The notes: a model not told the origin generated them from the letters alone. Counted from the first letter of the stretch, positions 10,265 through 41,945 are shown. The stretch: DNA of 64,000 bases from an uncultured Thermoplasmatales archaeon (GCA_964638175.1 CAZWZY010000007.1:2071-66070); one strand, 5' to 3'. Translations and numbers: made by a program.

Positions 10265-10267
10265 TTT

Positions 10268-10486: not shown

Positions 10487-10502
10487 AATTTTCACCTCCT
10501 TT

Positions 10503-12071: not shown

Positions 12072-12147
12072 TAGATTTGATTTATTATATTATTAAAAAA
12101 ATTACTTAAAAACAATTTAAAAATAGTTGAAAAATAGTTGAAAAATT

Positions 12148-12621: not shown

Positions 12622-12722
12622 ATATTAAAACACACTCCTATAATAGTTTAAAAGCAACCTTAATACTTAACAATGATTTAATAACGATTAGAAAACAGTT
12701 AAAAAACAGTTAAAAATTAAAT

Positions 12723-13334
12723 CTAATTATCAATAATATTTAGCAGCTCTGAAATATTTTTAATTGAAAAATCAGCATTAACATTGATACCAATAACTTT
12801 ACACTCAGCTGCTTTACCAGCTTTTACATCACTTTCTGTATCACCTATCAAAATTACTTCTTCAGGTTTCACATCAAGCCTTCTGCATGCTTCAAAAACA
12901 ATATCTGGAGCTGGTTTACCATTTTGAACATGATCACTGGTTATAATCATTTTAAAATATTTATCTATTTTAAATTTTTTAAGTATTTGAATAGCACAAT
13001 CTTGAGGTGTATTAGTAATAATGGCTTTTGGATATTTATCCAACTTTTTAAGTATTTTATTTGTTCCAGAAAATATCTTTAATTCATCTATATAACTATA
13101 ATAAATATTGTTACAAAAAGCACCAATTTTCCCATCTAATCCCAATTTTTCAAGGTTATCTAAAAGCTCATGCCCCCAAAATTTTTCAATAAATTCTTCT
13201 CTTGAGATTTCTTCATTTTTATAATTCTTTAACACAGCATTAAGACTTTTCCACCAAGAATCCAAACTATCTACAAGTACTCCATCCATGTCAAATAAAA
13301 TAGCAGCAGGTTTTAACTTTGTAGATTTTTTCAT
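12723..13334 (-). CDS. HAD-superfamily hydrolase (subfamily IA-like phosphatase)
   Basis: It has the DxD nucleophile motif FDMDGVLVDS and a C-terminal GDTESD motif. Confidence 0.75.
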   Translation of the reverse strand: MKKSTKLKPAAILFDMDGVLVDSLDSWWKSLNAVLKNYKNEEISREEFIEKFWGHELLDNLEKLGLDGKIGAFCNNIYYSYIDELKIFSGTNKILKKLDKYPKAIITNTPQDCAIQILKKFKIDKYFKMIITSDHVQNGKPAPDIVFEACRRLDVKPEEVILIGDTESDVKAGKAAECKVIGINVNADFSIKNISELLNIIDN

Positions 13335-13346
13335 AAAGCATCATTT

Positions 13347-14591: not shown

Positions 14592-14617
14592 CTTCCAAAA
14601 ATATCTGAAAATATTAT

Positions 14618-14803
14618 TCAGCCTGCGCGACCATCATCGCAAGCTTCATCTCGTTCCATTGGTCTAGCATGCTCAGCATGAGCTGGTTGAAGACAAATCT
14701 CGCGAGGGATTTTTTTCATTTTTTTACCACAGCATTCTGGTGCTTCTAATCCTTCATCTAAAGTTTCAGTGCGTTTGCATGTCAAACATTCATATTTATC
14801 CAT
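14618..14803 (-). CDS. Small Cys-rich putative metal-binding protein (61 aa)
   Basis: The Cys pattern is CxxC...CC...C...C. The gene is locally GC-rich against AT-rich flanks. Confidence 0.35.
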   Translation of the reverse strand: MDKYECLTCKRTETLDEGLEAPECCGKKMKKIPREICLQPAHAEHARPMERDEACDDGRAG

Positions 14804-14815
14804 ATACTATCCTCC

Positions 14816-15856
14816 TTATTTTTTTGAAATATATTCAGCAAGTTCCAATAATTTTTTAGCATATCCAGCTTCATTATCATACCAAACAAGAACTTTCACT
14901 AAATTATTATCTATAACTTTTGTTGATTTAGCATCAATAATACCAGAATGAGTATTACCAATAATATCAGAAGAAACTAAATCATCCTCACTATATGCAA
15001 GAATACCTTTTAATTTACCTTCTGCTGCTTCTTTAAAAGCATGATTTATAAGACCAGGGTTAGCCTTCTTTTCAAGTTCTGCAACAATATCAGTTATAGC
15101 TCCATCAGGAACAGGAGCCCGAATTGCAATAGCATCCATTTTACCTTTCATTTCTGGAAGAACCAACTCAGTTGCTTTTGCAGCACCAGTAGTTGTAGGA
15201 ATTAATGACACAGCAGCTGCACGACCGCGACGACGTTTACGAATAGGTTTGTCCACAAGTGCTTGACTTGAAGTATAAGCATGCACAGTAGTTACTAACA
15301 AATGTTTGACACCGAACTCCTCATTTAATACTTTTACAACTGGTGCAAGAGAATTAGTTGTACATGATGCATTAGATATAATATCATGTTTAATTGGATC
15401 ATATTTTTCTTCATTAACACCCAAAACAACTGTTAAATCGGCACTATCAGATGGAGCACTAATAATAACCTTAGAAACATTAGAGCCTAAATGTTTTGCA
15501 GCATCCTGTCTTTTCCTAAACGCACCAGTACATTCTAAAACAATATCCACATCTAATTTATCCCAAGAAATCTTAGATGGATCTTTTTCATGAAACAGTT
15601 TGATATTAAGTCTGTCCATCACAATCCTATCACATTTCATTTTAGTTTTTTGTAATTCTAAAAAATCAGACCCATAGTTTATATCAAAAGGAGCAACACC
15701 ATGAACCGAATCAAATTTGAGAAGATATGCAATATCTTCAGCAGAATTCAAATCATTTGCAGCAACAATTTCAACATCCTCAGATGGATTCTTAATAAAA
15801 TGATGCAAAACAAGTCTACCTATACGTCCAAGACCATTTATACCAATTCGTTTCAT
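14816..15856 (-). CDS. gap: Glyceraldehyde-3-phosphate dehydrogenase, type I
   Basis: It has the INGLGRIGR NAD-binding motif and the catalytic SCTTN motif, at full length. Confidence 0.9.
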   Translation of the reverse strand: MKRIGINGLGRIGRLVLHHFIKNPSEDVEIVAANDLNSAEDIAYLLKFDSVHGVAPFDINYGSDFLELQKTKMKCDRIVMDRLNIKLFHEKDPSKISWDKLDVDIVLECTGAFRKRQDAAKHLGSNVSKVIISAPSDSADLTVVLGVNEEKYDPIKHDIISNASCTTNSLAPVVKVLNEEFGVKHLLVTTVHAYTSSQALVDKPIRKRRRGRAAAVSLIPTTTGAAKATELVLPEMKGKMDAIAIRAPVPDGAITDIVAELEKKANPGLINHAFKEAAEGKLKGILAYSEDDLVSSDIIGNTHSGIIDAKSTKVIDNNLVKVLVWYDNEAGYAKKLLELAEYISKK

Positions 15857-15951
15857 AGATATCTGTTAATTTTATGTAAACGTGTTATTAAATAATAACT
15901 AAAATACAGATGAAAAACGATTAAAAAATAATTGAAAAATAAATTAATACA

Positions 15952-16533
15952 TTACTCTATATTTGCCTTATATCCGCCTTTGTTGTTTAATTTTTTCTTT
16001 TTTTCAATTTCGATGTCAAGAACGCCATTTTTATAGGTGGCTTTAGTTGTTTTTGGTTTAACATTACATGGCAGATCAATAACCTTATGATATTTTTTAT
16101 CAGTGCGATCAACTTTTATCTCTAGTTTTTCATCTTTTACATCAAGATCAATATCTTCTTTTTCTACACCAGGTACCTCAACAGTAATTGCTACATTATT
16201 ATGATTTTCGATAATATCAACAAGAGGCTCTCTTTCCTCCGAAAAACCTTTCCTGCCACTTGAAGTTTTTTTGGGATAATTCCCAAATTCTTGAATTCTG
16301 GGTTTACCATCTGGACCTATATGAACATTATAACCACGTACGAACGAGCTTCCCGGTTTCATACCAGTTGGCGTATCCCTAAATGTTTTTTCCATCATTC
16401 GTTCCATTGCATTAAAAATCCTATTAAACTCATCCTGATTTCTAAACATATCAAAGGGATCTCTATCTCGTCTACGTCGATCTTTTTCATCATCCGAATT
16501 CATTTTAACACAAACAACAAATTTTGATTGCAA
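15952..16533 (-). CDS. Small heat-shock protein (Hsp20), second copy
   Basis: The alpha-crystallin domain reads ITVEVPGVEKEDIDLDV....GVLDIEI. Confidence 0.8.
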   Translation of the reverse strand: MQSKFVVCVKMNSDDEKDRRRRDRDPFDMFRNQDEFNRIFNAMERMMEKTFRDTPTGMKPGSSFVRGYNVHIGPDGKPRIQEFGNYPKKTSSGRKGFSEEREPLVDIIENHNNVAITVEVPGVEKEDIDLDVKDEKLEIKVDRTDKKYHKVIDLPCNVKPKTTKATYKNGVLDIEIEKKKKLNNKGGYKANIE

Positions 16534-16595
16534 TATATAGTCATAACTAAAAATAAACCTAAAAATAAATTAAAAACATGTTAAACAATTATTTG

Positions 16596-17017
16596 CTACA
16601 CAGGATTCTCGTTTAACATTAACCAATAAGAACCAATCTCCTGTGTCACATTATGAAACTTTTTATAATCCACAGGTTTCCGAATATAACTATTAGCGCC
16701 AAGGCTATATGCACGTTTAATGTCTTTTTCCTCAGTAGAAGAAGTTAAAATAATTACTGGAATCAATTTAGTACGATCATTAGAACGGATATATTTCAAT
16801 ACTTCAAAACCGTCTCGTTTTGGAAGTTTTAAATCAAGCAAGATAAATTTAGGCAAAATAGTAGTATTAAGATATTCAACTGCTTCTACACCATCTTTTA
16901 CAACATCTAAACTATAACCGTTTGAACAAAATTCGCATCTATCAAAAGCACGCTGAGTAAGCTTAATGTCATCAGGGTTATCCTCAACTAATAAAATTTT
17001 ATTTGAGCTAATGATTA
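16596..17017 (-). CDS. Single-domain CheY-like response regulator (receiver); start codon unclear
   Basis: The frame is open upstream of the listed Met back to a TAG at about 17030. It encodes a complete receiver (KILLVEDNPDD...LDLKLP...T...K). There is no in-frame ATG, GTG or TTG before the phospho-acceptor Asp. See the corresponding finding. Confidence 0.55.
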
Positions 17018-17137
17018 TTACCTACCTTAATCAAACATTTGTTTTTTCGTAAATATAATGATAAATTGCGTTATTCAAATAAATATATAACTTAAAAATA
17101 ATTCGAAAATATCTAAAGAATGATTAAAATAACAAAA

Positions 17138-18718
17138 TTATGCAATTTCTCTTTTATGCAACAATGTTTTACCCTTTTCAGAAATATAAACAGTTCTAAG
17201 CTTACCTTGTCGCTTAGTAAAAATTAATCCTTTATTTTCAAGTTCCTCAAGTCTTTTAGCTGCAGTAGAATATGCAATTTTGAATTTAGACATAACCTTT
17301 TTATAAGGAACTAAAGCATTATTTTGATTCTGCTCATAAATAAACTTAAGCATATCATAAACAGAATCCTGCAAAGTTATTCCTTCAATTTTTTGACTAG
17401 GCAGTTTGTGTAACTCATTTTCAATAATGGCCATCTGATTATCGTTAACTATAGATGGATCAAAACGAATAAACATTAAAGAATGATTTTTAGCAACTGT
17501 TTCATTAATTTGATATAATGCATCAACAAATTTTTCAAATGAATGCCTAGTAATCAAATAATGAATCCCATCAAGCAACACAACTGATTTTTTATGTTTA
17601 TCAGTAAAATCTTTTATAAATTTAACAAGTGATTCAGTATCTGAAATATTATTATAACCAGCAAGTTTCTCTTGACTAAATAAAGCTACATCTATTTTTG
17701 AACTTGTGGGAATCATACTTTTAAGCATCTCCGGATTTGAACGAGTAATAAACAAGCCATCATAATTTGACTGAGCAATATCTGCAAAAAGATCAGCAGC
17801 TGAATCAACATTTTTATCAGGGAAAAGATAACTATTTCCATCGACCAATTTACCATGAATTTCAACATCTTTAGTTATGTCTTCACCAACAAAAATAGCA
17901 CCAATTTTCTGATTTGATTTCCCCTTCATAACGGATCCTTTAAAACGTATAATTTTTTTAGCATTATTCTTAGTTATTATTACTAAATCTTCAAAACCAG
18001 TTTTTTTCCCTTTTGTAACATTTTTTATTACATCAATAACATTTTGCGAATCCTTAAACAAAGGCAATTTACTGATTGTTCTATTCATAACCTCTTTACT
18101 TTTATAACCCGTTATTTCTTCAGCAGTGTTATTCCAAGTTGAAATCCTATTATTTCCATCAACAGAGATAATAATTTCATATGTACTATCAATTACATTC
18201 TGGAAATGTTCTTTTGCTTCAACTGCTTGTTTTTCAGCATTTTTACGTTCACTAATTTCATTTTGAAGTTGTTTATTTGCCTGTTCAAGTTCTTGTAATG
18301 ACTCTTTAAGTTCTTTTTTTACCTTTTTTCTTTCCTTTCTTATTTTATAATCTTTTAATTCACGTTTAACAGCTGGACCAAGCCTGCTAAGATTACTTTT
18401 CATAATGTAATCAGTAGCTCCAGCTTTCATTGATTCAACAGCTGTATCCTCACCAATTTTCCCAGATACAACAATAAAAGGGAGATCAATATTTTTTTTC
18501 TGGCATAATTTTAATGCATCTATTCCACTAAAACTTGGCATAACATAATCAGAGATTATAATATCCCATTTTTTATCCTTTAAGGCTTTACTCATAGAAT
18601 TAGAAGTCTCAACTCTATCAATCACTGGAATAAAACCATTTTTTTTAAGTTCACGTTTAATTAAAACAGCATCATCTTCAGAATCTTCTGCTAATAATAC
18701 ATGCAATTTATTACTCAT
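17138..18718 (-). CDS. Multidomain response regulator: receiver + coiled coil + PAS + DUF835/KaiC-like (P-loop-less) + C-terminal wHTH
   Basis: It has an N-terminal receiver (LLAEDSEDD, DYVMP), a PAS domain (ISTWNNTAEEITGY), a middle domain resembling the P-loop-less KaiC-like gene at 41338, and a C-terminal winged helix. It overlaps the kinase gene by 8 nt. Confidence 0.75.
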   Translation of the reverse strand: MSNKLHVLLAEDSEDDAVLIKRELKKNGFIPVIDRVETSNSMSKALKDKKWDIIISDYVMPSFSGIDALKLCQKKNIDLPFIVVSGKIGEDTAVESMKAGATDYIMKSNLSRLGPAVKRELKDYKIRKERKKVKKELKESLQELEQANKQLQNEISERKNAEKQAVEAKEHFQNVIDSTYEIIISVDGNNRISTWNNTAEEITGYKSKEVMNRTISKLPLFKDSQNVIDVIKNVTKGKKTGFEDLVIITKNNAKKIIRFKGSVMKGKSNQKIGAIFVGEDITKDVEIHGKLVDGNSYLFPDKNVDSAADLFADIAQSNYDGLFITRSNPEMLKSMIPTSSKIDVALFSQEKLAGYNNISDTESLVKFIKDFTDKHKKSVVLLDGIHYLITRHSFEKFVDALYQINETVAKNHSLMFIRFDPSIVNDNQMAIIENELHKLPSQKIEGITLQDSVYDMLKFIYEQNQNNALVPYKKVMSKFKIAYSTAAKRLEELENKGLIFTKRQGKLRTVYISEKGKTLLHKREIA

Positions 18719-20615
18719 TCTTTACTCCTCCTCTAAGAGAAAAATAAAATGTTGCACCTTCACCTTCCTTGCCTTCCGCCCAAATCTCTCCGCCATGTCG
18801 ATGAATAATTCGGTTTACAATTCCTAGGCCTATACCTATTCCCTCAAATTCATCATCAGAATGAAGACGCTGGAATGGAACAAATAATTTATCAACATAT
18901 TTCATATCAAAACCTGCACCATTATCTCGAACAAAAAAGACATCTTTGTTATTTTTCTTGTTTTTACCAACTTCTATTTTTGCATTTGATTTTTTATTAG
19001 TAAACTTCCAAGCATTTCCAATAAGATTTTCAAGAGCCATACGAATAAGTTGTTTATCTCCGATGGCAGTTAAATCATTATCAATACTTACCTTCACCTT
19101 TCTATCAGATTCCTTTTTTTGAAGATCATCAATTATTGATTTAGATAAATCACCAATATTTACCTTTTCAGATTCTATTGGACGGCGGGTGATACGTGAA
19201 AGTTTCAACAAATCATCGATTATTTTACCCATATGCTGTGTTGCTTTCCTTACACGGAAAAGGTAGTCCCTTCCTTCTTCATCCAATTTATCAGAGTAAT
19301 CTTCAATTAATGCCTGACTAAAACCGTCGATACTACGTAGTGGAGCGCGAAGGTCATGACTAACAGAGTAACTAAAAGCTTCTAACTCCTTATTTATTGC
19401 CGCTAGCTCAGTAGCATGTCGTAATAAATTTTCATTTAGTCTCTTTATCTTTTCTTCATTTTTTTTTCTATCAGTAGTCTCTTGAACAATACCAACCATA
19501 CGAACAGCTTTACCATCCTTATCCCTAATTACATCACCAGTTTCTCTAACCCAATGAATAGAACTATCAGGCCATACAATACGATGCTCGATATCATATT
19601 CTTTATCTTTTTTTAAACAAGCATTTACAGAATCTAGCACATATTGCCGATCATCAGGGTGAATGCAATCTAAAAATGCTTCATATGATTTACCGAACTT
19701 ACCTTTCTTAAAACCAAACATCGGTTCAATTTGATCAGACCAAGCAAGTTCACCGGTTACAACATTCCAATCCCAACTACCAATTTCTCCCGCCCTTTGA
19801 GCAAGTTTATAACGTTCTTCGCTTTTTTCAAGGTCACCTAATATTTTTTGTCGTTCAGTAATATCCCGGTTAACAGCAACCGCACCTAAAAAATTACCAT
19901 CATTATCTTTTATACAGTTAACAGAGGAATAGATACTAATCAATTTTCCATCCTTTCTCTTTTGTAAAGATTCTCCCTTCCAATATCCCTTTTTCAAAAA
20001 CTCATCTAAGATTTCTTTTCTATCTTCTTCAATGTACTCAACATCAACGAGATTTTGCATACGTTTACCAACAGCCTCTTTTGATTTAAAACCATAAATT
20101 TTTTCAGCTGCCTTATTCCAACTTTTAATTTTAAAATCTGAATCAGTAGAAATAATAGCATCATTAACTCTATCAACAAGCTCAGCTTGATCTTTAATTT
20201 GTTTTTTCATTTGGCTAAGTTCTGTTACATCTATTGCAAATTCAAAACGTACATCACGACCATCATGCCATTTTATAATGCGATCAGTAATCATAAAATC
20301 TTTATTAAGAACTGGATTGTGATATTCCCATTCGTAGGGTTTACCTTTATTTTTTAAAATCTTTTTATTTGTACAAAAATCACAAGGAGTTCTAAATTTT
20401 TGAAAAGCTTCATAACATTTTTTACCCACTGGATTTTCCCCAAGTAATTCTTCAAAATATTTATTTACGTATAACACCTCAAAAGTAAAAGGATCCGCCA
20501 CATATGCAATTTGATTTATACTATCAAAAAGTGATATGTGTGGCAAAGGTTCATGTTTTAAAACATTTCTTTGTTCTTTATTACTTAATTGTTTTGCTAT
20601 AAACATTCCTCCCAA
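18711..20615 (-). CDS. PAS-domain sensor histidine kinase
   Basis: It has multiple PAS/PAC segments, an H-box (SHDLRAPLRSI), an N-box, and G1 (DNGAGFD) and G2 motifs. Confidence 0.85.
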   Translation of the reverse strand: MGGMFIAKQLSNKEQRNVLKHEPLPHISLFDSINQIAYVADPFTFEVLYVNKYFEELLGENPVGKKCYEAFQKFRTPCDFCTNKKILKNKGKPYEWEYHNPVLNKDFMITDRIIKWHDGRDVRFEFAIDVTELSQMKKQIKDQAELVDRVNDAIISTDSDFKIKSWNKAAEKIYGFKSKEAVGKRMQNLVDVEYIEEDRKEILDEFLKKGYWKGESLQKRKDGKLISIYSSVNCIKDNDGNFLGAVAVNRDITERQKILGDLEKSEERYKLAQRAGEIGSWDWNVVTGELAWSDQIEPMFGFKKGKFGKSYEAFLDCIHPDDRQYVLDSVNACLKKDKEYDIEHRIVWPDSSIHWVRETGDVIRDKDGKAVRMVGIVQETTDRKKNEEKIKRLNENLLRHATELAAINKELEAFSYSVSHDLRAPLRSIDGFSQALIEDYSDKLDEEGRDYLFRVRKATQHMGKIIDDLLKLSRITRRPIESEKVNIGDLSKSIIDDLQKKESDRKVKVSIDNDLTAIGDKQLIRMALENLIGNAWKFTNKKSNAKIEVGKNKKNNKDVFFVRDNGAGFDMKYVDKLFVPFQRLHSDDEFEGIGIGLGIVNRIIHRHGGEIWAEGKEGEGATFYFSLRGGVKNE

Positions 20616-22356: not shown

Positions 22357-23203
22357 TATTTTATCAATATTTGATTCATATATAGATGTAATAAGACTTT
22401 TTATCATCGTATTAGTCAGTTTCATAGTTTTTTTATTAATATTAAAGCTAATAAAACGACGTTTACTTAAAAATATTAGAAGAAAAAAACAAAAATCAAA
22501 TGTAATAATATTCCTAGATTTACTAAAATATATCTTTGCATTTTTCCTAATAATAATTATTTTTTCAGCATATTACAACAAATGGGGAGAGCTAGGATTC
22601 ATAGCAGGACTTCTAACTGTTGCAATAGGATGGGCGCTACAAAAACCAATAAGCGGTGTTGTAGCATGGTTAATAATTGTAACAAGAAGACCATTTTTCA
22701 TAGGAGATAGAATTATTATATCAGGAATAAAAGGAGACATATCAAACCTGACACTCACGCATATATACCTAGATGAAGTGGGAGGAACAATACTAGGGGA
22801 AGAAAAATCAAGAAGAACAATAATGGTACCAAATTCAATAATCTTTGAAGAAGAAGTCGTAAACTACACACATGCTGACAATTACATACTAGACGAAGTG
22901 ACAACAGCAATAACCTATGAAAGCGATTTAGAAAAAGCAGAAAAGTTAATACTAAAATCAGTTGAAAAAATAATGAAACCATTATGGGAAAAATTCCCAA
23001 AAAGAATAGAAAAAGAACCTCATACAAGGTTAAAATTCAAAGACTCAGGAATAGATGTAACCGTAAGATACAATAGTATAGCAAAAGAAAGAAACAAAAT
23101 ATCAACAAATATCACAAGAGAAATATTCAACTCAATTAGAAAAAACAAAGACGTTGAAATCGCATATCCACACACAGAAGTAGTATTCAGAGAAAAAAGC
23201 TAA
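22340..23203 (+). CDS. Small-conductance mechanosensitive channel (MscS family)
   Basis: It has TM helices followed by the conserved MscS beta domain (PF.IGD.I...G..G.V..I.L..T.I.). Confidence 0.7.
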   Translation: MFSISNILSIFDSYIDVIRLFIIVLVSFIVFLLILKLIKRRLLKNIRRKKQKSNVIIFLDLLKYIFAFFLIIIIFSAYYNKWGELGFIAGLLTVAIGWALQKPISGVVAWLIIVTRRPFFIGDRIIISGIKGDISNLTLTHIYLDEVGGTILGEEKSRRTIMVPNSIIFEEEVVNYTHADNYILDEVTTAITYESDLEKAEKLILKSVEKIMKPLWEKFPKRIEKEPHTRLKFKDSGIDVTVRYNSIAKERNKISTNITREIFNSIRKNKDVEIAYPHTEVVFREKS

Positions 23204-23341
23204 ACCACACCACGTTTCCGATCTTTTGGAAGAGCCCCACGTTTAAAACCACAAACCTGACAAATAAGCATATATTTTCCAGTAGCTGTTTTTTGTTTGA
23301 CCATTGCCTTCTTACCACATTTGGGACAAATATACTCCTTC
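23204..23341 (-). CDS. Small zinc-ribbon protein (CPxCG-type), 45 aa
   Basis: It is an unlisted ORF, MKEYICPKCGKKAMVKQKTATGKYMLICQVCGFKRG..., with two CxxC pairs. Confidence 0.35.
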
Positions 23342-23493
23342 ATGAAAATCTAATAACATAATTACTTTTTTAGTAATAAACTTATAGAAAAAAATGTGAA
23401 ATGTTTAACTCATTTTTCATTTTATTTAAAACCTGCGAAATCCTGTAAATCCAAGGTTTTTTATAGGAGGCCCCCATTACGTGGCGCCCTCAC

Positions 23494-24669
23494 ATGGACT
23501 GGGATAAAAAAATACTTCTGGTATACATAACATCAATTACTTTCCTAGTATTCTCAGGAAGACTACTAGTCCCAACTCTCACAGGTAACATAGAAAACAG
23601 CTTTGATATAAACCATGTAGAAATCGGACTAGGAATGACACTACTATGGCTATTCTACGGATTAATGCAATTCCCTTCAGGAATAATATCAGATGAAAAA
23701 GGAAGAAAACCAGTAGCAAGCTTTGCAATATTCATATTTGCTATAGCATTTCTAATAATGAGCCTATCAACAAATTATATCCTATTTCTATTATCATTAA
23801 TACTGCTAGGGATAGGATTCGGATGCTTTTACACAGTAAGCCTGAGTATGATATCAGACAGATTCAAAAACAAAGGAAAGGCAATAGGAGCACAATCAGC
23901 AATGGCATCATTAGCAGGAATAACACCACTAATCACACTACCACTAGCAGATAAAATAGGATGGAGACCACTAATACTAATCTATGCTATAACAAGCATA
24001 ATCATAGGAATTCTATTCTATAACCAAGTACCAGAGAAAAAACAAGAAACACAACATAGAAAAGAAGGACTACAAAACGGAGTAAAAATCTTCAAAGACT
24101 CAAATGTTACACTTTTACTAATAATCAACGCGATAATGGCATTTATATGGGTAGGAATAATATCCTTTCTACCAATATACCTCATAGAAGGAAAAGGAAT
24201 AGATCAAACAGCTGCCGCAGTAATATTCTCACTAATATTTTTCACAGGGCTATTCATAAGACCACTAATAGGACATCTCTCAGATATATACAACAAAAGA
24301 ATCTTAATTGTCGGCATTCTAATAATATCAGCAATTGCTTGTTTCCTACTTTCTCAAGTAACTTCAATAATTTTAACAACAATAGGTGTAATTCTTACAG
24401 CAACAATATCAGCATTTTTCCCACTTCGATCTAATTATCTAATGAATAAATGGCCATCAAAAAGTAGAGGATCAAAGATGGGAATGTACTCAACAACCGT
24501 TATTATTCTAAGTAGCATGTCACCATTTATTATTGGATTAAGTTTAAAGAGTTATAATTTTGATAAGATTTTTCAGTTTTTTTCGATAATTATTTTATTT
24601 GCGATATTCTTAGTAATTTGTATTAAATATCTCCTGCCTTTTGCTCAAATAAAAATAAAAAAATGTTAA
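23494..24669 (+). CDS. MFS transporter
   Basis: It has 12 TM helices and an MFS motif (GxxxDxxGRK-like: SDEKGRKP). Confidence 0.75.
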   Translation: MDWDKKILLVYITSITFLVFSGRLLVPTLTGNIENSFDINHVEIGLGMTLLWLFYGLMQFPSGIISDEKGRKPVASFAIFIFAIAFLIMSLSTNYILFLLSLILLGIGFGCFYTVSLSMISDRFKNKGKAIGAQSAMASLAGITPLITLPLADKIGWRPLILIYAITSIIIGILFYNQVPEKKQETQHRKEGLQNGVKIFKDSNVTLLLIINAIMAFIWVGIISFLPIYLIEGKGIDQTAAAVIFSLIFFTGLFIRPLIGHLSDIYNKRILIVGILIISAIACFLLSQVTSIILTTIGVILTATISAFFPLRSNYLMNKWPSKSRGSKMGMYSTTVIILSSMSPFIIGLSLKSYNFDKIFQFFSIIILFAIFLVICIKYLLPFAQIKIKKC

Positions 24670-24678
24670 AAATAAATC

Positions 24679-24852
24679 TTATTTTTTAATTGGTTTTACT
24701 AAAATCGCCAATTTTCCATCTAGTACTTTAATCTCCCATTCAATTTGATCCCCTTCTGTTAAATAAAATTGTTTAACAATTCCAGATGGTACTGTGGTTC
24801 TTAGTGATTCACTTTTTGTTGAAGCTTTTGTTAAAGTAGTTTTTTCACCCAT
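24679..24852 (-). CDS. AbrB/SpoVT/MazE-type swapped-hairpin DNA-binding protein (57 aa)
   Basis: It is an unlisted ORF, MGEKTTLTKASTKSESLRTTVPSGIVKQFYLTEGDQIEWEIKVLDGKLAILVKPIKK. It has the VPSGIVKQF...GD AbrB-like signature. Confidence 0.4.
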   Translation of the reverse strand: MGEKTTLTKASTKSESLRTTVPSGIVKQFYLTEGDQIEWEIKVLDGKLAILVKPIKK

Positions 24853-24879
24853 GAGATCAAAGAATAATAGGTATCTTAT

Positions 24880-26700
24880 TATATTAACATTTCTACCTAA
24901 TTTTATAGTATATTTTCTACCTAAAGTTTTATATATGGAGAACTCATTACCTAATATTAGGTAGAAATTTAGGTATTATTAGTAGGGGAAGAGGTAAGCT
25001 TCCCCTATGGAGAATAACGAATGCAGCCAAGCAAACGAAATATCTCCAAGAAAAACATAGAACTGGAGATATATAATACATTCGAACTGTTCAAAGAATC
25101 AAAGAACATCATGATAGTTGATTTTCTAAACAAACTACACCTTTGCTGGATAGATCAACAAAATTATCGTAAGATAAAATATTCTTATGATTCACTTTAT
25201 AAACTCTTAATTTTCAAACAACTTAAAGGAATAAAATTCCAAACACAAATTGAAAGATACCTGAATAAACATAAAGATGAACGAAAGAAACTTGGTCTTG
25301 AATCGTCACCAGATCAAAGAACAATAAGCTACTTCATGAATAGGATTTTAGATGAGCAAGATAAACAAGATATTGATTTAATAGTTCAAAAAATAAATGA
25401 AATCTCTGAAAAATTTGGAATAATCCTTGATATAAAACTGCTAACTCCTGAGAAACAGAATATCAAATCAAAAAGAACATTTCACCATAACAAAAACCTG
25501 AAAACAAAAGAGATAACTCAACTTTTTAAGAAACGTTTATCTTCAGTTATAGATCTTAATACAAATAGTAATTGTATCTATTCTAAGAATGATTTGATTA
25601 ACTTATTACTTCATATGTGTAATACTACTGATTTTGCAGAAAACGGAAGCCATACACTCAAAATCAATAGAGATAAAATTCCAGATGGTGACACACTTCT
25701 TTATCATCTAAAGAAATATGAGGATCTTGATCAAGTTAAACGTATGTTTATCACTATGTTTGAAATGATTTGGGAATCAGCACGAAAAGCAAATCATTTC
25801 CCAAGAACTGTGGACTGTAGCATAGATTACACAAGTTGGCATTTCTATGGCGATAAAAACGGTCCAATGATTACAGAAATGAAACCAGATCGTGGCACAA
25901 CACATTGTTACAAGTTTGCAACAATAAACATCTCAGAGAATAACCAACGATTTACACTTCTTGCAATACCAGTTGGACCATTTGATAAAAAAGAGGAAAT
26001 ATTGAAAACACTACTTGATTATGCTAAACAACGTGTAAAAATTAGAAGACTCTATGTTGATAGAGGATTTTTTGATAGTAACTCTATTGCTTTGTTTAAA
26101 AGGTATCAAATCAAGTTCCTGATGCCGTGTACCGCTAATGAAAGAATCAAAAAAGTCCTTGAAATTGTACCAACACCAACTGTAATCAAAGATTATGAGA
26201 TGAAGAATACATTGTTTAACATGGTTGTTGTAACAGATGAATATGAAGTTAGAAGAGCTTTTGCAACAAACATTGACTTTAATGAAAACGATGTAGGGCT
26301 AACAGAACGACTCTTTTATCTATATTCTAAGAGATGGTCGATAGAGACTTCTTACAGAGTAAAAAAGCATTCATTCAGACCAAAGACAACTTCAAAGAAT
26401 TACTTCATACGACTGTTCTATTTTCTGTTCTCAGCACTTATGTATAACCTTTGGTTGCTTGCTGATATATTGATCTGTCTTGCTCTTCTTGGATATTTTA
26501 ATGGAAAACATATCATTACATCAAAATATTTTGGAAATATGATGCTCTCCATTGATCCAGGAGGATAACAAAATGAAATTTTTTGTTAATCATTCTATAT
26601 TCTATTAGTTTAAACCAGATTTATATCTCATTTTTTTAAAGTATTAAACCAATATTTTGATGATTTCTGTAGAAATATTAATCAAATATATCCTTATTCC
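24880..26700 (+). mobile_element. IS-like element carrying a DDE transposase; a GC-composition boundary falls here
   Basis: The transposase ORF 25021..26568 has a DDE-type C-terminal organisation and a basic N-terminus. Repeated short TTCTACCTAA/TTAGGTAGAA inverted motifs lie at 24890-24990. The precise ends were not determined. Confidence 0.5.
25021..26568 (+). CDS. Transposase (IS4/IS1634/ISH-like DDE family)
   Basis: It is a 515-aa protein and the only ORF in the element. It has DDE-transposase-like conserved blocks (DRGF, YSKRWSIE). Confidence 0.6.
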   Translation: MQPSKRNISKKNIELEIYNTFELFKESKNIMIVDFLNKLHLCWIDQQNYRKIKYSYDSLYKLLIFKQLKGIKFQTQIERYLNKHKDERKKLGLESSPDQRTISYFMNRILDEQDKQDIDLIVQKINEISEKFGIILDIKLLTPEKQNIKSKRTFHHNKNLKTKEITQLFKKRLSSVIDLNTNSNCIYSKNDLINLLLHMCNTTDFAENGSHTLKINRDKIPDGDTLLYHLKKYEDLDQVKRMFITMFEMIWESARKANHFPRTVDCSIDYTSWHFYGDKNGPMITEMKPDRGTTHCYKFATINISENNQRFTLLAIPVGPFDKKEEILKTLLDYAKQRVKIRRLYVDRGFFDSNSIALFKRYQIKFLMPCTANERIKKVLEIVPTPTVIKDYEMKNTLFNMVVVTDEYEVRRAFATNIDFNENDVGLTERLFYLYSKRWSIETSYRVKKHSFRPKTTSKNYFIRLFYFLFSALMYNLWLLADILICLALLGYFNGKHIITSKYFGNMMLSIDPGG

Positions 26701-26770
26701 CAGGTCTCAATATGTCTCTATCACTAATTTTTGTTCATTGGTAGGGACTTTCGGAACTACTGCCATAAAC

Positions 26771-26786
26771 GAAATATTTATATAGA
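26771..26786 (+). promoter_or_regulatory. Candidate archaeal TATA box/BRE for the thermosome gene
   Basis: The sequence GAAATATTTATATAG lies 60-75 bp upstream of the ATG. It is followed by an AGGAGG RBS at 26828. Confidence 0.3.
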
Positions 26787-26845
26787 AGTGTTTGTATACC
26801 GATTCTACTCTTAGAGGATAATTTATAAGGAGGCAAAAGAAAAAT

Positions 26846-28507
26846 ATGATGACTGGACAACAGCCAATAATAGTACTAAAAGAAGGAACAAAACGAGAAC
26901 GTGGAAAAGGAGCACAATCCAACAACATTATGGCAGCACGAGCAATCTCTGATGCAGTCAAATCAACCCTTGGACCAAAAGGAATGGACAAGATGTTGGT
27001 TGATTCCATGGGAGATGTTGTAGTTACCAATGACGGTGCAACCATTTTAAAAGAAATTGATGTTGAACATCCTGCTGCAAAAATGATTGTGGAAGTCGCC
27101 AAATCACAAGATGAAGAATGTGGCGATGGAACAACCAGTGCGGTTGTGCTTACAGGGGAATTATTGAAATACGCAAGTGAGTTGCTTGAACAAAACATCC
27201 ACCCCACTGTTATTTGTGGCGGGTACAAACTAGCGGCACAAAAAGCAATTGAAATTTTAAACAAACTAGCAATTGATATCAAACCAGGAGATAAGAAAAA
27301 CTTACGAAGCATTGCTATGACCTCAATGGCAAGTAAAAGTGCAAGTGCCGAAAAAGATCGTCTTGCTGATGTTGTTGTTGATGCAGTAACTGATGTTGCC
27401 GAAAAAATCAACGGAAAAACCTATGTTGACTTAGACAACATTCAAATACAAAAGAAACAAGGCGGTGGCATCGCAAACACTGAGATTATTTCAGGAATTA
27501 TCTTAGACAAGGAGCGAGTACATGATGGTATGCCCAAACAAGTGAAAAACGCAAAGATTACTCTTATCAACGCCGCACTTGAAGTCAAGAAGACAGAAGT
27601 TGATGCACGGATTCAAATCCAAGATCCTACCCAACTACAAGCGTTCTTAGATGAAGAAGAGGGCATGATCAAGAAAATGGTCGAAAAAGTGAAAAAGAGC
27701 GGAGCGAACGTACTGGTCTGTCAAAAAGGAATAGATGATATTGCACAGCACTTCCTTGCAAAAGCAGGTATTTATTCAGTACGACGTGCCAAGAAATCAG
27801 ATATGGATAAACTTGCAAAGGCAACTGGCGCAAAAATCGTTGCAAACCTAGACGATCTTAACGTAAAAGACCTTGGCTATGCAGGAAACGTCGAGGAACG
27901 AAAAATCGGCGATGATAAAATGACCTTTGTCACGGGATGTAAAAACCCCAAGGCAGTTTCTATTCTTATCAGAGGAACCACGGAACACGTCATCGACGAG
28001 CTTGAACGTGGACTTCACGATGCATTATCTGTCGTGAAGGTTGCCATAGAAGACGGAAAAATGACTGCTGGCGGAGGCGCTGCAGCAACCGCTATTTCCA
28101 TGGCTCTACGAGACTATGCTCCATCGGTTGGTGGCCGAGAACAAATGGCCATTGAAGCATTTGCCAATGCCATCGAAGTCATTCCCAAGACCTTATCAGA
28201 AAATGCTGGTCTTGATCCAATTGACATGATGCTTGAAGTGAGAAGTGCCCATAAAAAGGGCAAAAAACACGCGGGCGTCAATGTGCTGCATGGAAAAGTC
28301 GACGACATGATTAAAAACAATGTTATCGAGCCGCTCCGAGTAAGCAAACAAGAAATCGAAGCATCCTCAGAAGCCGCAACCATGATTCTGAGAATCGATG
28401 ACGTCATCGCCTCAAAAGGTGGCGGTGGCGGTGGTGCACCAGGCGGTATGCCTCCAGGCGGCATGGGCGGTATGCCTCCAGGCGGCATGGGAGATATGGA
28501 TTACTAA
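26846..28507 (+). CDS. ths: Thermosome (group II chaperonin) subunit
   Basis: It has canonical TCP-1/thermosome motifs ([24 protein letters not shown]) and a C-terminal GGM repeat tail ([17 protein letters not shown]). Confidence 0.95.
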
Positions 28508-28544
28508 AATCCATTCCCCTCTTTCTTTTTTTTATTAGGATCAT

Positions 28545-29054
28545 ATGTCTGCAACACAGTCTACAGGCAAAAAGAAAGACGAATGCAAAAAAACCATTGC
28601 TAGTTTAGAAAAGAAAGTAACTCAACTACAGAAAGAATTGCAAGAGAAAAATGACAAATTGATACGCAGTTATGCAGACTTGCAAAACTATCAAAAACGT
28701 ATGGAGAAAGAATTGCAATCCGTTAAAGAAGAAACGAAAGCTATCTATCTTTCAGAATTACTTGATTTAACTGAACTGCTCAAGAAAGCCTATAAGGACC
28801 ATGAACCAAAAAAAGGGCTTGAACTCATGCTAAAAAACATCGAGCAGTTCTTTGCGAGAGAATGCATTTCCTCTATTGAGTGCATAGGAAAAAAGTTTGA
28901 TCATCATCTTCACCATGCCATCACCACTGTTGAGAAAGATGATTGTGAGGATGATATTGTTGTTGAGGAGGTCAAAAAAGGCTATCTGGTAAATGATAAG
29001 CTGTTGCGACCGGCTCATGTAATTGTTGCAAAAAAGAAGGAACAAAAGGAGTGA
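28545..29054 (+). CDS. grpE: Nucleotide exchange factor GrpE
   Basis: It has an N-terminal coiled coil and the DLQNYQKRMEKE motif. It is immediately upstream of dnaK. Confidence 0.85.
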   Translation: MSATQSTGKKKDECKKTIASLEKKVTQLQKELQEKNDKLIRSYADLQNYQKRMEKELQSVKEETKAIYLSELLDLTELLKKAYKDHEPKKGLELMLKNIEQFFARECISSIECIGKKFDHHLHHAITTVEKDDCEDDIVVEEVKKGYLVNDKLLRPAHVIVAKKKEQKE

Positions 29055-29060
29055 TACGCT

Positions 29061-30941
29061 ATGGGAAAAATTATAGGTGTAGATTTAGGAACAACGAATT
29101 CCGAAGTTGCCGTTATGGAAGCTGGGAAACCAACCATTATTAAAAGTGCGGAAGGACAACCGTACTTTCCTTCCGTTGTTGCATTTACCAAAGAAGGGGA
29201 AATGCTCGTTGGAGAATCGGCAAAGCGACAAGCAGTAACAAATACTGAAGGAACTGTTCATCGGATTAAACGAAAAATGGGAACTGGTGAAAAGATAAAG
29301 ATTCGGGGGAAAGAGTATACTCCTGAACAGATATCAGCATTTATTTTACAAAAAATCAAAAAAGATGCCGAAGATTTTCTTGGAGAAAAAGTAACGGAAG
29401 CAGTGATTACCGTTCCTGCCTATTTTAATGACGACCAACGGCAAGCAACCAAAGATGCAGGTAAAATTGCAGGTCTTACGGTCAAACGAATTATCAACGA
29501 ACCAACTGCTGCATCACTTGCGTATGGACTGGATAAAAAAGGAGATCATAAGATCGCCGTCTATGACTTTGGTGGCGGAACCTTCGATATTACCCTGATG
29601 GAAGTAGGCGAGGGTGTCTTTGAAGTATTATCCACCAATGGCGATACCCAACTAGGCGGTTCTGATATGGATCAAACATTGGTGGACTATTTTGTAAGTG
29701 ACTTTAAGAAAAAGCATAACGTCGATTTAACCAAGGACCCCAAGGCGGTACAACGATTGCTTGAAGCAGCAGAAAAGGCAAAGATGGAACTTTCTTCAAC
29801 GCTACAGACGGAAATCAATCTGCCCTACATTACAGTCGTTGATAACGAGCCGCAACATTTAGAACTCAAATTAACCCGAGCAAAACTCGAGGAACTGATT
29901 ACCCCTATTGTTGATAAAACAGAGCAGCCCTGCAAGCAGGCACTTAAGGATGCAAAATTAAAACCAGCAGATATTGATCACGTCGTACTTGTTGGTGGAA
30001 CGACGCGAATCCCTCTGGTAAAGAAGAAGGTCGAAGCCATTTTCGGTAAAACGCCAAAACGTGATGTCGATCCTATGGAATGTGTGGCCATTGGTGCAGC
30101 CATCCAAGCAGGAGTTCTTTCTGGTGACATCGACAAAGATATCGTCTTGCTTGATGTAACACCTTTAACGCTCAGTATTGAAACACTTGGTGGTGTCGCC
30201 ACGCCACTGATTGAAAGAAATACCACCGTTCCCACAAAAAAAAGTAAAATCTTCTCTACTGCGGCAGATAACCAACCAAGCGTCGACATTAATGTACTCC
30301 AAGGAGAACGACCGATGGCAGCAGATAACAGAAGCCTGGGGCGATTCCATCTCGACGGCATCCTCCCTGCACCACGAGGCATTCCTCAAATCGAAGTGAC
30401 CTTTGACATCGACGCTGATGGTATTCTTAATGTCTCTGCAAAGGACCTCGGTACAAAAAAAGAACAGAGTATTCGTATTACAGGGTCAACAAAACTCACT
30501 GATGACGAAATTTCTCGGATGAAAAAAGAAGCAGACGAGCATGCTGAGGAAGACAAAAAACGAAAGGAAAAAGTAGAAATACGAAACAATGGAGATGCTC
30601 TTGTCCACTCAGCACAAAAGACGGTGGATGAATTGAAAGACAAATTTTCACCCGAGGATAAAAAAGCTATTGAAGAGGGAATTAAGGCATTGCGGGAAGC
30701 ACTTGCTGGTGATGATACTGTCCTTATCAAAGAAAAAACAGATGCATTGACGAATGCGCTTCAAAAGGCATCGACAGCAGTTTATCAACAGGCTGCTCAA
30801 CAGGCACAACAGCAACAGCAAACATCACAAGACTCACCAAAAGACGAGAGTTGGTCTGGTCATCCTTCGGGAGGCGACAAGACCATTGATGCTGACTATG
30901 AAGTAAAGGATGATAAAAACAAATCAAAGAAAAAAGATTAG
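29061..30941 (+). CDS. dnaK: Chaperone DnaK (Hsp70)
   Basis: It has IGIDLGTTNS, DLGGGTFD and the full Hsp70 architecture. Confidence 0.95.
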
Positions 30942-30950
30942 GGATTTGTG

Positions 30951-31370
30951 CTACTTTGATTTCAGCATGAGTACTGAACACGGTGCATGCCGAAGCACTT
31001 CCTCAGGGGTACTCCCCAAGATGAATCGATCAATTCTTCCTTTTTTTTCTTTATGTCCTGCCATAATAATCAGATCATCTTCATTTGAATAGTTGACAAT
31101 CTCTTCTGCAGGATCTCCTGAGATAAGAATGGTTTGAAGGTCTACGCCCATCTCCTTGCCAATAGGTTTAAAACTCTCTAAAAACGCCTCTGCCTCTTTT
31201 TTCAGTTTCTCTTCAAGTACAACTGAGGCAATAAATTGGTGCGTGTCATTGATAGAAATCACCGTTGCTTTAATGCCTAATGCTTTTGCTAAAAATGCAC
31301 CTTGCCGTACTACATTTTTTGAACTCTCAGAATTATCAACAGGAATCACGACACGTTTGACGTTTTCCAT
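30951..31370 (-). CDS. Universal stress protein (UspA family)
   Basis: It has a Usp fold with the G-2x-G-9x-G(S/T) ATP motif (GHKEKKGRIDRFILGSTPEEV). Confidence 0.75.
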   Translation of the reverse strand: MENVKRVVIPVDNSESSKNVVRQGAFLAKALGIKATVISINDTHQFIASVVLEEKLKKEAEAFLESFKPIGKEMGVDLQTILISGDPAEEIVNYSNEDDLIIMAGHKEKKGRIDRFILGSTPEEVLRHAPCSVLMLKSK

Positions 31371-41931: not shown

Positions 41932-41945
41932 ATAAGGAGGGGATA

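Follow-up and report, generated by a model that had tools for sequence, protein, structure and literature searches.

Transporter insertion sequences (the tIS of ISfinder) and unit transposons of the Tn3 and Tn7 type use a single transposase and one pair of terminal repeats to mobilise unrelated passenger genes. Site choice can also be precise, as with Tn7, which inserts at attTn7 downstream of glmS, and the yeast element Ty3, which inserts at Pol III transcription start sites. The closest described relatives of the element reported here are the ISH3-family insertion sequences of archaea, which are 1,225-1,500 bp long, carry a single ORF, have termini beginning with CRGT and are flanked by direct repeats of 4-5 bp (ISfinder; De Palmenaer et al. 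2008, PMC2266710).

Here, we analysed a window of 64,000 nt from an uncultured Thermoplasmatales archaeon (GCA_964638175.1 CAZWZY010000007.1:2071-66070), in which base composition changes abruptly next to a chaperone operon. We consider it probable that an ISH3-family cargo transposon has inserted into an uncultured Thermoplasmata genome, that this step marks its right-hand junction with the host, and that the low-GC DNA came from a donor of lower GC, either as giant cargo or by recombination. The features on which this reading is built are as follows.

1-24,678, no strand: low-GC block (30.3% GC), putative cargo or co-acquired DNA, continuing past the window's left edge; Pfam assigns ferredoxin, three hemerythrins, cupin, radical-SAM enzyme, P-type ATPase, amino-acid permease, DUF389, SRPBCC, two HSP20s, PRC, HAD, type-I GAPDH, an RR-PAS-DUF835 protein, histidine kinase, CBS, MscS and MFS.
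24,679-24,852, minus strand: small DNA-binding protein of the AbrB/SpoVT (MazE-like) type, 57 aa, divergent from the transposase.
24,890-24,967: operator-like repeats, three exact copies of TTTCTACCTAA at 24,890-24,900 (plus), 24,914-24,924 (plus) and 24,957-24,967 (minus).
24,983-25,007, plus strand: hairpin TAGGGGAAG-N7-CTTCCCCTA, directly 5' of the ribosome-binding site GGAG (25,009-25,012).
25,021-26,568, plus strand: ISH3-like DDE transposase, 515 aa (Pfam DDE_Tnp_1 and DUF772).
26,569-26,746, plus strand: 3' tail of the element with oligo-T runs, from an alignment of 69 loci.
26,747-26,762, plus strand: right terminal inverted repeat (IRR) ACTTTCGGAACTACTG; the element ends at 26,762.
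26,763-26,767, plus strand: CCATA, the expected right copy of a 5-bp target-site duplication (TSD), by analogy with 10 of 11 two-ended relatives.
26,768-26,845, plus strand: host thermosome promoter and 5' leader, BRE/TATA AACGAAATA-TTTATATA, TATA box at 26,777-26,784.
26,846-31,370: host core cluster of thermosome (26,846-28,507, plus), GrpE (28,545-29,054, plus), DnaK (29,061-30,941, plus) and Usp (30,951-31,370, minus).
31,371-64,000, no strand: remaining block of ~40% GC with MsrA, tRNA-Gly, a second tRNA, KaiC-like ATPases, a TrpB-like PALP enzyme, PdxS/PdxT, ArgRS, radical-SAM/SPASM proteins and OYE.

Maximum-likelihood segmentation of the whole window returned a single change-point at 26,893 (2*deltaLL = 593; the top 50 positions lie at 26,825-26,908) and no secondary breakpoint. 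GC content is 30.3% over 1-26,893 and 39.6% over 26,894-64,000, with GC3 at 0.200 +/- 0.040 in the 23 left genes against 0.339 +/- 0.045 in the 39 right genes (Mann-Whitney p = 3e-10), the fraction of F+Y+I+N+K at 0.351 against 0.275 (p = 7e-9), and the GC of non-ORF DNA at 0.285 against 0.351. In under 100 bp, GC changes by 9 points and GC3 by 14, and both sides are homogeneous blocks. The sharp discontinuity and the codon-usage shift proposed in the first-pass annotation are thereby confirmed, and the blocks differ even after GC normalisation: Karlin delta* (x1000) is 37-53 within blocks and 53-111 between them, and TETRA correlations are 0.68-0.76 within and 0.56-0.63 between. The left block deviates from the flanking core genome in both composition and oligonucleotide signature. 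Of the GC values given in that annotation (about 30% and about 42%), the left one stands and the right one is too high as a mean, since 43-44% is reached only in the chaperone genes. The same annotation centred the step on the IS, and this has to be corrected: the transposase ORF (GC 30.9%, GC3 0.26) and the AbrB-like gene are of left-block composition, and the boundary is the right tip of the element at the IRR. The statistical change-point is displaced to the thermosome start codon because the thermosome promoter is itself AT-rich. As the GC step falls at the transposon's right tip, we read the junction as a natural boundary between mobile and host DNA and not as an assembly error.

The regulator, transposase and IRR together occupy 24,679-26,762, and the IRR adjoins the thermosome promoter, whose TATA box starts 14 nt after the IRR end. 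Several properties of the element recall ISH3. Its hosts are archaeal, the ISH3 model (NCBIfam NF033541) is the best profile match of the window transposase, the reverse complement of the IRR, CAGTAGTTCCGAAAGT, starts with CAGT and so with the ISH3 terminus CRGT, the direct repeats of relatives (5 bp) lie within the ISH3 rule, and the Y-(2)-R-(3)-E-(3)-R signature of IS4-superfamily DDE transposases is present as Y435, R438, E442 and R446. There are also differences. The proteins of the window (155 bits), L006 and L008 score 152-160 bits, under the model's cutoff of 225; the 515-aa window transposase has an extra N-terminal region of ~190 aa, which is DUF772-like; and the full E-(6)-K of the YREK motif is retained. 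Whereas ISH3 elements are short and carry a single ORF, members of this family reach 4-11 kb or more with passenger genes, and they insert promoter-proximally and in one orientation, which is not reported for ISH3 in PMC2266710 or PMC13343696.

Across 49 transposase sequences, D269, D347, E442 and the Y435-R438-E442-K449 set are invariant and R446 is nearly so (at least 90%). In an AlphaFold model, the predicted catalytic core finds its best PDB matches in Tn5/IS50 and piggyBac transposases (1MUH, 6X67; Foldseek probability 1.0, E 4e-6 to 3e-5), although at sequence identities of ~10% and TM-scores of ~0.3; the PDB holds no sequence-detectable relative of the transposase. With invariant DDE and YREK residues and a predicted fold like that of Tn5 and piggyBac, catalytic competence looks intact.

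The AbrB-like protein has a weak Pfam MazE_antitoxin match, a PrlF-like NCBIfam match at 4e-4 and orthologs in L082, L084 and L085 at 68-86% identity. The regulator at this position is interchangeable across the family, with AbrB, Zn-ribbon, RHH and HxlR types occurring. The TTTCTACCTAA repeats flank a TATA-like box, TTTTATATA (24,927-24,935), and are kept only at AbrB-type loci, other repeats replacing them at RHH-type and Zn-ribbon-type loci. We infer that this region is a divergent, regulator-controlled promoter of the transposase in which the repeats are putative operators. It is these repeats that the first-pass annotation had noted as short inverted motifs flanking the transposase; they are not terminal repeats. 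A second candidate pair of terminal repeats (24,877-24,896 and 26,669-26,688) was also rejected, as its fixed offsets are kept only in relatives with at least 81% transposase identity and homology between loci continues beyond both arms; we have reinterpreted it as an extra AbrB-type operator copy.

The hairpin marks the left edge of the region conserved with the transposase gene. At L096, the transposase is 91% identical to that of the window and yet the regulator is of the Zn-ribbon type, with similarity starting only at the hairpin, so we do not regard the AbrB-like gene as intrinsic to the mobile core. Per-sequence stem counting (loop indels defeat alignment-based folding of the 5' region) gave a stem of 7 bp or longer in 60 of 75 unique sequences of the family, compared with 25 of 75 shuffled ones, and the arms covary. 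At the other end, the oligo-T runs of the tail probably terminate transposase transcription and in doing so would probably shield the thermosome promoter from read-through. RNAalifold predicted no pairs in the 3' tail, nor any that would make the IRR an RNA motif, and a scan for bacterial sigma-70 promoters and terminators was uninformative for an archaeon.

Comparison with ~90 related loci (L-numbered) revealed a common layout: a left terminal inverted repeat (IRL) CAGTACYTCCGAATGY, passenger genes, a small divergent regulator with its own operators, the 5' hairpin, the 515-aa DDE transposase, a tail of ~180 nt and the IRR ACTTTCGGAACTACTG. The IRR 16-mer occurs with at most two mismatches 178-192 nt after the transposase stop codon in ~70 of 75 loci, whichever gene lies downstream, and is absent from thermosome loci that have no transposase. 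In relatives, the IRL consensus is CAGTAC(T/C)TCCGAATG(C/T), paired with the IRR and with 5-bp TSDs; it was found 2.3-9 kb upstream in at least 13 loci, and perfect TSDs border 10 of 11 two-ended elements (4,026-10,813 bp). These bounded elements carry several passenger ORFs, while the conserved transposase unit alone measures ~1.78 kb. Their cargo varies between copies, as in tIS and unit transposons, from which the family differs in descent, host phylum and target rule, and in its arrangement, where all cargo follows the IRL and an exchangeable module of regulator and transposase closes the right end.

A filled and an empty version of the thermosome site were also recovered. L085 holds a 10.8-kb element with TSD CTATG at this site. 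The empty site reconstructed from it matches L004, which has no transposase, and over 809 bp the sequence immediately preceding the L004 thermosome shares 76% identity with the outer left flank of the L085 element. In 15 of 28 independent contexts, a host TATA box begins 14 nt past the IRR end, with the element in one orientation, and tandem elements at L142 share the TSD TCGTA, showing that a target can be reused. By analogy, this resembles Tn7 and Ty3 in the fixed distance and orientation to a host landmark, in sparing the host gene and in reusing the identical site; here, however, the landmark is an archaeal BRE/TATA box. Many of the thermosome-adjacent insertions could descend from one ancient event, which lowers the number of independent observations for that site. 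A search for a TSD within 500 nt upstream of the transposase gene gave a signal not above shuffles, and a lone 11-mer in L122 lies inside an ORF and was judged chance.

The transposase has 729 homologs, and its gene usually occurs once per contig. This single-copy look, a smooth identity gradient and conserved synteny had suggested a domesticated, vertically inherited transposase. That explanation was rejected in view of the terminal repeats, the TSDs, the empty site and identical copies in different flanks. The transposase genes of L127 and L128 are 100% identical although their flanks differ; between L008 and L139, identity is 97% on the left flank and 77% on the right. Between the window and L082, dS is 0.59 for the transposase and 1.0 for the AbrB-like gene, with thermosome, DnaK and GrpE at or near synonymous saturation (pS 0.72-0.83); the transposase dN/dS is ~0.09. 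Judged by these divergences, the transposase/AbrB module is far younger than the core genes beside it. The element is mobile and recent. As for vehicles, 14 IMG/VR matches to the IRR 16-mer all came without a transposase and were judged chance, phage hits were none, and plasmid hits were only haloarchaeal transposases at 23-27% identity.

A mobile element that is identical in different backgrounds, as in L127 and L128, also raises the prospect of a chimeric join at a repeated IS, which the first-pass annotation had listed: two co-occurring Thermoplasmata populations of ~30% and ~40% GC would share the element, and the assembler would have crossed between genomes inside the transposase. That many metagenome contigs stop near element edges and that the two blocks bear the signatures of different relatives fit this picture. 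We nevertheless regard it as very unlikely. A Logan contig (SRR15425350_68281, 6,322 bp), which comes from the same sequencing run and is therefore independent in algorithm but not in data, equals 23,045-29,366 with 0 mismatches and spans MFS, AbrB, transposase, thermosome, GrpE and DnaK. Logan is a de Bruijn assembly whose k=31 unitigs and contigs leave repeats unresolved. The contig covers 2 kb of the cargo and 2.8 kb of the thermosome operon, and a repeat of the two-in/two-out kind would have interrupted it. Moreover, the layout of cargo, IRR and thermosome, together with a GC step of similar size, is seen again in other species and in independent samples and assemblers, namely in L082 and L083 (two runs), L006 (an NCBI MAG) and L085, L086 and L087 (three ENA assemblies). 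The mismatch-free crossing and the recurrence in other species together make a chimera unlikely.

With the junction taken as real, the low-GC DNA to its left extends over at least 26.7 kb. Its genes form a stress cluster that is conserved in Thermoplasmatota and characteristic of relatives with low GC. L091 and L094 (28.6-30.3% GC) have it in synteny at 58-84% amino-acid identity and without transposon ends, and PADLOC detected no defence systems in the unannotated left-block ORFs of the window. The dinucleotide signature of the left block is nearest that of natively low-GC relatives (delta* 22-51). The earlier proposal of a horizontally acquired low-GC island or an IS-mediated integration is thus upheld in substance, given a boundary at the terminal repeat of a true transposon family, the signature of lower-GC relatives and a young module; its description as a metal island is not, the content being that stress cluster. 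No tRNA or integrase was found at the border. As in genomic islands and flexible hotspots, AT-rich deviant DNA with strain-variable genes sits beside a conserved core gene; the border here differs in being a DDE transposon end next to a promoter, without tRNA or integrase.

No IRL was found in 1-26,746, and no second IRR copy in the window, by mismatch search (up to three mismatches), regular expressions or a position weight matrix (PWM); the best IRL PWM score left of the IRR is 4.2, against 45-52 for true IRLs. Logan data extend the sequence leftwards by 488 bp only, all of it low-GC. The putative cargo, at 24.7 kb or more, is 2.5-10 times that of any bounded relative. With 26.7 kb left of the IRR lacking an IRL, no left CCATA copy was found, and the window's element is only putatively a complete, two-ended one with its own TSD.

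The window's lack of an IRL is compatible with a reading in which the element is an old, one-ended relic and the left block is simply the same organism's lower-GC chromosome, flexible or late-replicating and under another mutational regime, without recent transfer. The left block might indeed be ordinary chromosome and not cargo, since it is a lineage-typical cluster, including type-I GAPDH, that has no transposon ends in L091 and L094; its genes are probably useful, have Thermoplasmatota best hits and keep their synteny, and relatives without the transposase are also somewhat lower in GC upstream of the thermosome (L003 ~35 vs 41%; L002 ~34 vs 42%). Against this stand the size and abruptness of the step between homogeneous blocks, the youth of the transposase and AbrB module relative to the adjoining core genes, and the signature of the left block, which is as near to that of L091, a different organism (delta* 22-38), as one half of the block is to the other (43), the distance to the right block being large (53-111). 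Relatives also swap their left flanks independently of the right ones. We therefore hold native heterogeneity of this kind to be unlikely.

The right block has its signature nearest to relatives of ~40% GC (delta* 32-64), and 31,371-64,000 is of core-genome character. It could be supposed that the polarity is the reverse, with an organism of ~30% GC having acquired at least 37 kb of 40% GC DNA to the right of the IRR: genome-typical composition is not readable from the window alone, and relatives with the same thermosome operon span 32 to 47% GC. The right block, however, is the one with ArgRS, PdxS/PdxT, tRNAs, MsrA and the chaperone operon, and the geometry of the element makes it the insertion target, with a host promoter region that is common to the loci without transposase (L003, L004 and L007). 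Furthermore, it is the AT-rich side that varies between relatives. The element is absent at L002, L003, L004 and L007, and left flanks are wholly different among the 12 thermosome-adjacent loci, so that content and presence vary among relatives at this locus. A reversed polarity is, on these grounds, very unlikely.

The same asymmetry is visible across the family. The difference in GC between right and left flank is zero or positive in 25 of 29 loci, large steps occur at L082 (27/29/40%), L006 (29/38/41%), L098 and L111, and bounded cargo is more AT-rich than its surroundings at L085 (40.6 vs 45-47%) and L131 (29.6 vs 38-40%). Family cargo is usually more AT-rich than host DNA. Under the transfer reading that we prefer, the stress cluster, native to relatives of ~30% GC, would have come from a lower-GC Thermoplasmata donor and would still be unameliorated. 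It may have arrived as cargo of an unusually large element with its IRL beyond the window, or through recombination anchored on the element, as a shared sequence, and on the thermosome-promoter site, where insertion has recurred.

To conclude, this ISH3-like, promoter-seeking transposon family appears to be new to description. A broader proposal, possible rather than probable as we see it, is that it constitutes an undescribed family of archaeal DDE cargo transposons, widespread in sediment Thermoplasmata, which recognises BRE/TATA promoters, inserts in a fixed orientation so that the TATA box begins 14 nt beyond its IRR end, can stack at one site, and moves peptidases, surface proteins, defence genes and, here, a stress regulon spanning 24.7 kb or more among lineages that differ in GC, the window containing its largest known member, beside a chaperone operon. 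As this GC step in a MAG contig is found to be biological, the contig should not be split there, and the end of an AT-rich cargo transposon offers a base-resolution account of compositional mosaicism in uncultured sediment archaea. The transposase, the IRL/IRR pair and an archaeal promoter, with or without TBP/TFB, make a testable system, and one that might serve to target insertions in archaea. The family follows a precise, promoter-proximal and orientation-specific target rule, seen in perfect TSDs, a filled/empty pair and repeated insertion at one 5-bp target. For prokaryotes it would be unusual, if confirmed, that a simple DDE element directs its integration to promoters, and this could explain how flexible islands accumulate upstream of essential genes without inactivating them. 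The findings also suggest that extracellular peptidases, a hallmark of sediment Thermoplasmata, can move as transposon cargo.

The window falls into two compositional blocks. GC content stays at about 30% as far as 27 kb and is about 40% thereafter in a 1-kb profile, and at 200-bp resolution the increase falls within 26,700-26,900. Maximum-likelihood segmentation placed one change-point at 26,893 (top 50 positions 26,825-26,908; 2*deltaLL = 593), separating segments of 30.3% and 39.6% GC, and found no second breakpoint in the window. The blocks also differ in GC3 per gene (0.200 on the left, n=23; 0.339 on the right, n=39; p = 3e-10), in the F+Y+I+N+K fraction of their genes (0.351 and 0.275) and in GC outside ORFs (0.285 and 0.351). 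GC-normalised Karlin delta*x1000 was 37-53 within blocks and 53-111 between them, while TETRA correlations were 0.68-0.76 and 0.56-0.63, respectively. Segmentation, per-gene GC3 and GC-normalised signatures thus confirm the sharp discontinuity reported in the first-pass annotation, and the sliding-window GC and tetranucleotide analyses that it proposed both show the left/right difference. It had, however, centred the step on the insertion sequence just upstream of the thermosome; the transposase gene (25,021-26,568) and the small gene preceding it are compositionally part of the left block, with the boundary further downstream. This boundary is a junction between transposon and host, because the right terminal inverted repeat (IRR), the expected target-site duplication (TSD) and the TATA box are positioned at 26,747-26,784, as follows:

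26,747-26,762: IRR
26,763-26,767: CCATA, the expected TSD copy
26,777-26,784: thermosome TATA box
26,846: thermosome ATG

The statistical change-point was moved about 100 bp rightward by the AT-rich thermosome promoter.

A chimeric join at a repeated insertion sequence had been offered as one explanation of the step, and is the reading that we consider least probable. Exact-protein look-ups of the MFS protein, the transposase and the thermosome all led to a single contig of 6,322 bp, SRR15425350_68281, from Logan, an independent assembly of the same sequencing run. It is identical to window positions 23,045-29,366 and covers the MFS, AbrB-like, transposase, thermosome and GrpE genes and the start of DnaK. 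Repeats are left unresolved in Logan contigs, so a join via a repeat common to two genomes should have broken there. The GAPDH region and the window's left end are found on other Logan contigs of this run.

The 515-aa transposase matches DDE_Tnp_1 and DUF772 in Pfam and is ISH3-like in NCBIfam (155 bits; cutoff 225). The best 120 of its 729 homologs are all full length, along an identity gradient of 91-55%, and every named one among these 120 belongs to Thermoplasmatota. The DDE and YREK residues are invariant in 49 sequences, a dN/dS of ~0.09 reflects purifying selection, and the AlphaFold model (pLDDT 75 overall, 83-93 in the catalytic core) best matches piggyBac and Tn5 transposases. Homologs lie directly upstream of a thermosome gene, in the same orientation, at comparison loci L006, L008, L082, L084, L085, L096, L101, L102, L106, L110 and L139, with a wholly different left flank each time (e.g. 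R-M systems, DUF1156-DUF499, an M28 peptidase or DUF6932); some others adjoin different genes. Between the window and L082, dS is 0.59 for the transposase and 1.0 for AbrB, whereas synonymous sites in the adjacent thermosome, DnaK and GrpE genes are saturated or nearly so, which makes the module younger than the genes beside it. At L096 (5,640-7,187), a transposase 91% identical to the window's has 29.8% GC between flanks of 36.3% GC each. This lineage holds ~29-30% GC in hosts of 36-40% GC, a pattern consistent with recent spread out of a low-GC source.

Alignment of 69 loci revealed an invariant block, CTACTTTCGGAACTACTG, 178-192 nt past the stop codon, independent of the downstream gene. 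It was not found at thermosome loci without the transposase, where the common part is only the promoter downstream of the block. Its reverse complement starts CAGT, and the ISH3-family terminus is CRGT (De Palmenaer et al. 2008, PMC2266710). An inverted partner (the left repeat, IRL), CAGTAC(T/C)TCCGAATG(C/T), lies 2.3-9 kb upstream of the transposase at at least 13 loci, and perfect 5-bp duplications flank 10 of 11 two-ended elements (4,026-10,813 bp). At L085, a 10.8-kb element with TSD CTATG occupies the same thermosome site as in the window; beyond its IRL, the flanking DNA shares 76% identity over 809 bp with the sequence immediately upstream of the thermosome in L004, which lacks the transposase and also agrees with the reconstructed empty site. 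Given these terminal repeats, duplications and empty site, the relatives' elements are genuine ISH3-type transposons with passenger genes, and the variable left flank of the homolog loci is cargo. L004 itself carries CATTCGGAACTAGTAAT (approx. 9,880-9,900), ~85 nt before the thermosome TATA box and IRR-like at 12 of 15 positions; it may be a remnant of a past element or a piece of a native motif.

Among the known cargo are peptidases (M28, S8 and C13), surface proteins of PKD/NosD/FG-GAP type, DUF3592 and an SPL-like radical-SAM enzyme. Bounded elements with cargo lie at L085:925-11,737, L142:190-9,776, L154:1,903-7,872 and L130:2,707-6,905; the secreted peptidases are very large (M28, 1,621-1,655 aa; S8 subtilase-NosD, 980 aa; C13/C14-like) and are accompanied by PKD/beta-helix/FG-GAP surface proteins. 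Extracellular peptidases are considered characteristic of MBG-D archaea; lying inside bounded elements, they can therefore be transposon-borne.

The gene divergent from the transposase encodes a small DNA-binding protein in every case. The types (AbrB, Zn-ribbon, RHH or HxlR) are interchangeable, and each has its own repeats surrounding a TATA-like box. The short inverted motifs previously described as flanking the transposase are present (TTTCTACCTAA at 24,890 and 24,914, inverted at 24,957), but they are the AbrB-type regulator repeats. Of 75 unique sequences, 60 have a hairpin immediately 5' of the RBS (25 of 75 when shuffled), and its arms covary; no conserved RNA structure was found in the 3' tail.

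A TATA-like box lies exactly 14 nt after the IRR end in 48 of 70 unique loci. Clustering the downstream flanks gave 28 independent contexts; the modal spacing was 14 nt in 15 of them and fell within 12-16 nt in 21, compared with 1/86 at 14 nt for the control segment. The transposase and the gene that follows it point the same way in every case. L142 (169-205; 9,761-9,781) carries two stacked elements, IRR-TCGTA-IRL[...]IRR-TCGTA-promoter, the downstream one 9.6 kb long; TCGTA at both junctions means that an identical 5-bp target was used twice. Elements also abut as IRR-5 bp-IRL at L112:1,522-1,558, L127:1,925-1,961 and L128:2,591-2,627, and again at L167:108-144, where the discordant flanking 5-mers (GACTA and ATTTG) suggest recombination between elements. 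Pairs with identical or similar transposases have unrelated flanks, and in one pair the left flanks are 97% and the right flanks 77% identical; left-side DNA has thus been swapped independently of the core.

The right block is core-like (chaperone operon, MsrA, two tRNAs, KaiC-like ATPases, PdxS/PdxT, ArgRS), and among genomes its thermosome is closest (82-85% aa) to those of uncultured Thermoplasmata MAGs, one of them SM1-50, which we take to be a member of MBG-D/Thermoprofundales. In the left block lie genes for three hemerythrins, a His-rich P-type ATPase, two HSP20s, a type-I GAPDH, an RR-PAS-DUF835 protein paired with a histidine kinase, and CBS, MscS and MFS proteins. The nearest named relatives of its GAPDH are Thermoplasmatota. 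Its cluster is syntenic in two other organisms (L091 and L094; 58-84% aa identity), where the surrounding 15-21 kb has 28.6-30.3% GC. In dinucleotide signature, the left block comes nearest to these and to other natively low-GC relatives, the right block to relatives of ~40% GC. Both blocks therefore fall within one class, yet each resembles a different genomic background.

Several loci within the blocks are of separate note. The stress/sensor cluster (window 1,494-20,615; L091:5,964-20,994; L094:127-11,887; ~29-30% GC in all three organisms) comprises hemerythrins, radical SAM, the His-rich P-type ATPase, HSP20, HAD, type-I GAPDH, HSP20, RR, RR-PAS-DUF835 and HK, and may be a regulon that couples GAPDH and the small heat-shock proteins to a two-component system. 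The ATPase (4,654-6,633) has a His-rich N-terminus, MNNEHNHNQHEEHHDHH, with no recognisable HMA domain there, which suggests a metal-binding leader. The chaperone operon (26,846-31,370; also L082, L084, L085, L006 and L008) runs thermosome-GrpE-DnaK and has a convergent Usp gene after it, with no DnaJ alongside in any of these relatives; the thermosome has a C-terminal tail of GGM repeats. A 114-nt tRNA at 40,360-40,473 (Rfam, 41 bits; absent from ARAGORN) is probably an archaeal tRNA with an intron. A KaiC-like ATPase cluster (40,589-43,291) and a radical-SAM/SPASM series (53,965-57,493), the latter suggestive of a peptide-maturation or a cofactor locus, contain:

40,589-41,341 and 42,527-43,291: clear PF06745 KaiC matches
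41,338-41,931: DUF7504 protein, KaiC match below threshold
within 40,589-43,291: unannotated 194-aa ORF
53,965-55,053 and 55,470-56,444: radical-SAM/SPASM genes (Pfam)
56,459-57,493: unannotated third ORF with a similar CNLxC motif

A comparable GC step occurs at the same junction in L082 (27/29/40%) and L006 (29/38/41%), with large steps in L098 and L111. Bounded cargo is more AT-rich than its surroundings (L131, 29.6% vs 38-40% GC; L085, 40.6% vs 45-47%), and GC content left of the element does not exceed that on its right in 25 of 29 loci. We regard the GC step as probably a transposon junction with acquired low-GC DNA; a reversed polarity, with the ~40% GC block as the acquired segment, appears very unlikely. 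No IRL was found in the 26.7 kb left of the window's IRR, and the left block extends beyond the window edge, the 488 further bases recovered being low-GC throughout. Two accounts fit this missing left end. The window's copy may be a very large element with the stress cluster as cargo; alternatively, low-GC DNA may have recombined in, with the element and the site it repeatedly uses as the anchor, or the copy may have lost its IRL. Native heterogeneity combined with a relic element is an improbable account.

GC discontinuities at mobile elements, ISH3 elements and insertion sequences with passenger genes are already known. The element shares its catalytic motif, CRGT termini and 5-bp repeats with the ISH3 family, but differs from it in size and scores below the curated HMM cutoff. 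Five features appear to be undescribed, and neither the ISH3 description (PMC2266710) nor a 2026 archaeal IS survey (PMC13343696) mentions them: the ~190-aa N-terminal extension, the swappable regulator module, the multi-kb cargo, the occurrence across sediment Thermoplasmata and the insertion in one orientation at a fixed 14 nt before TATA boxes. The GC step itself is of moderate interest, to which the transposon family behind it adds.
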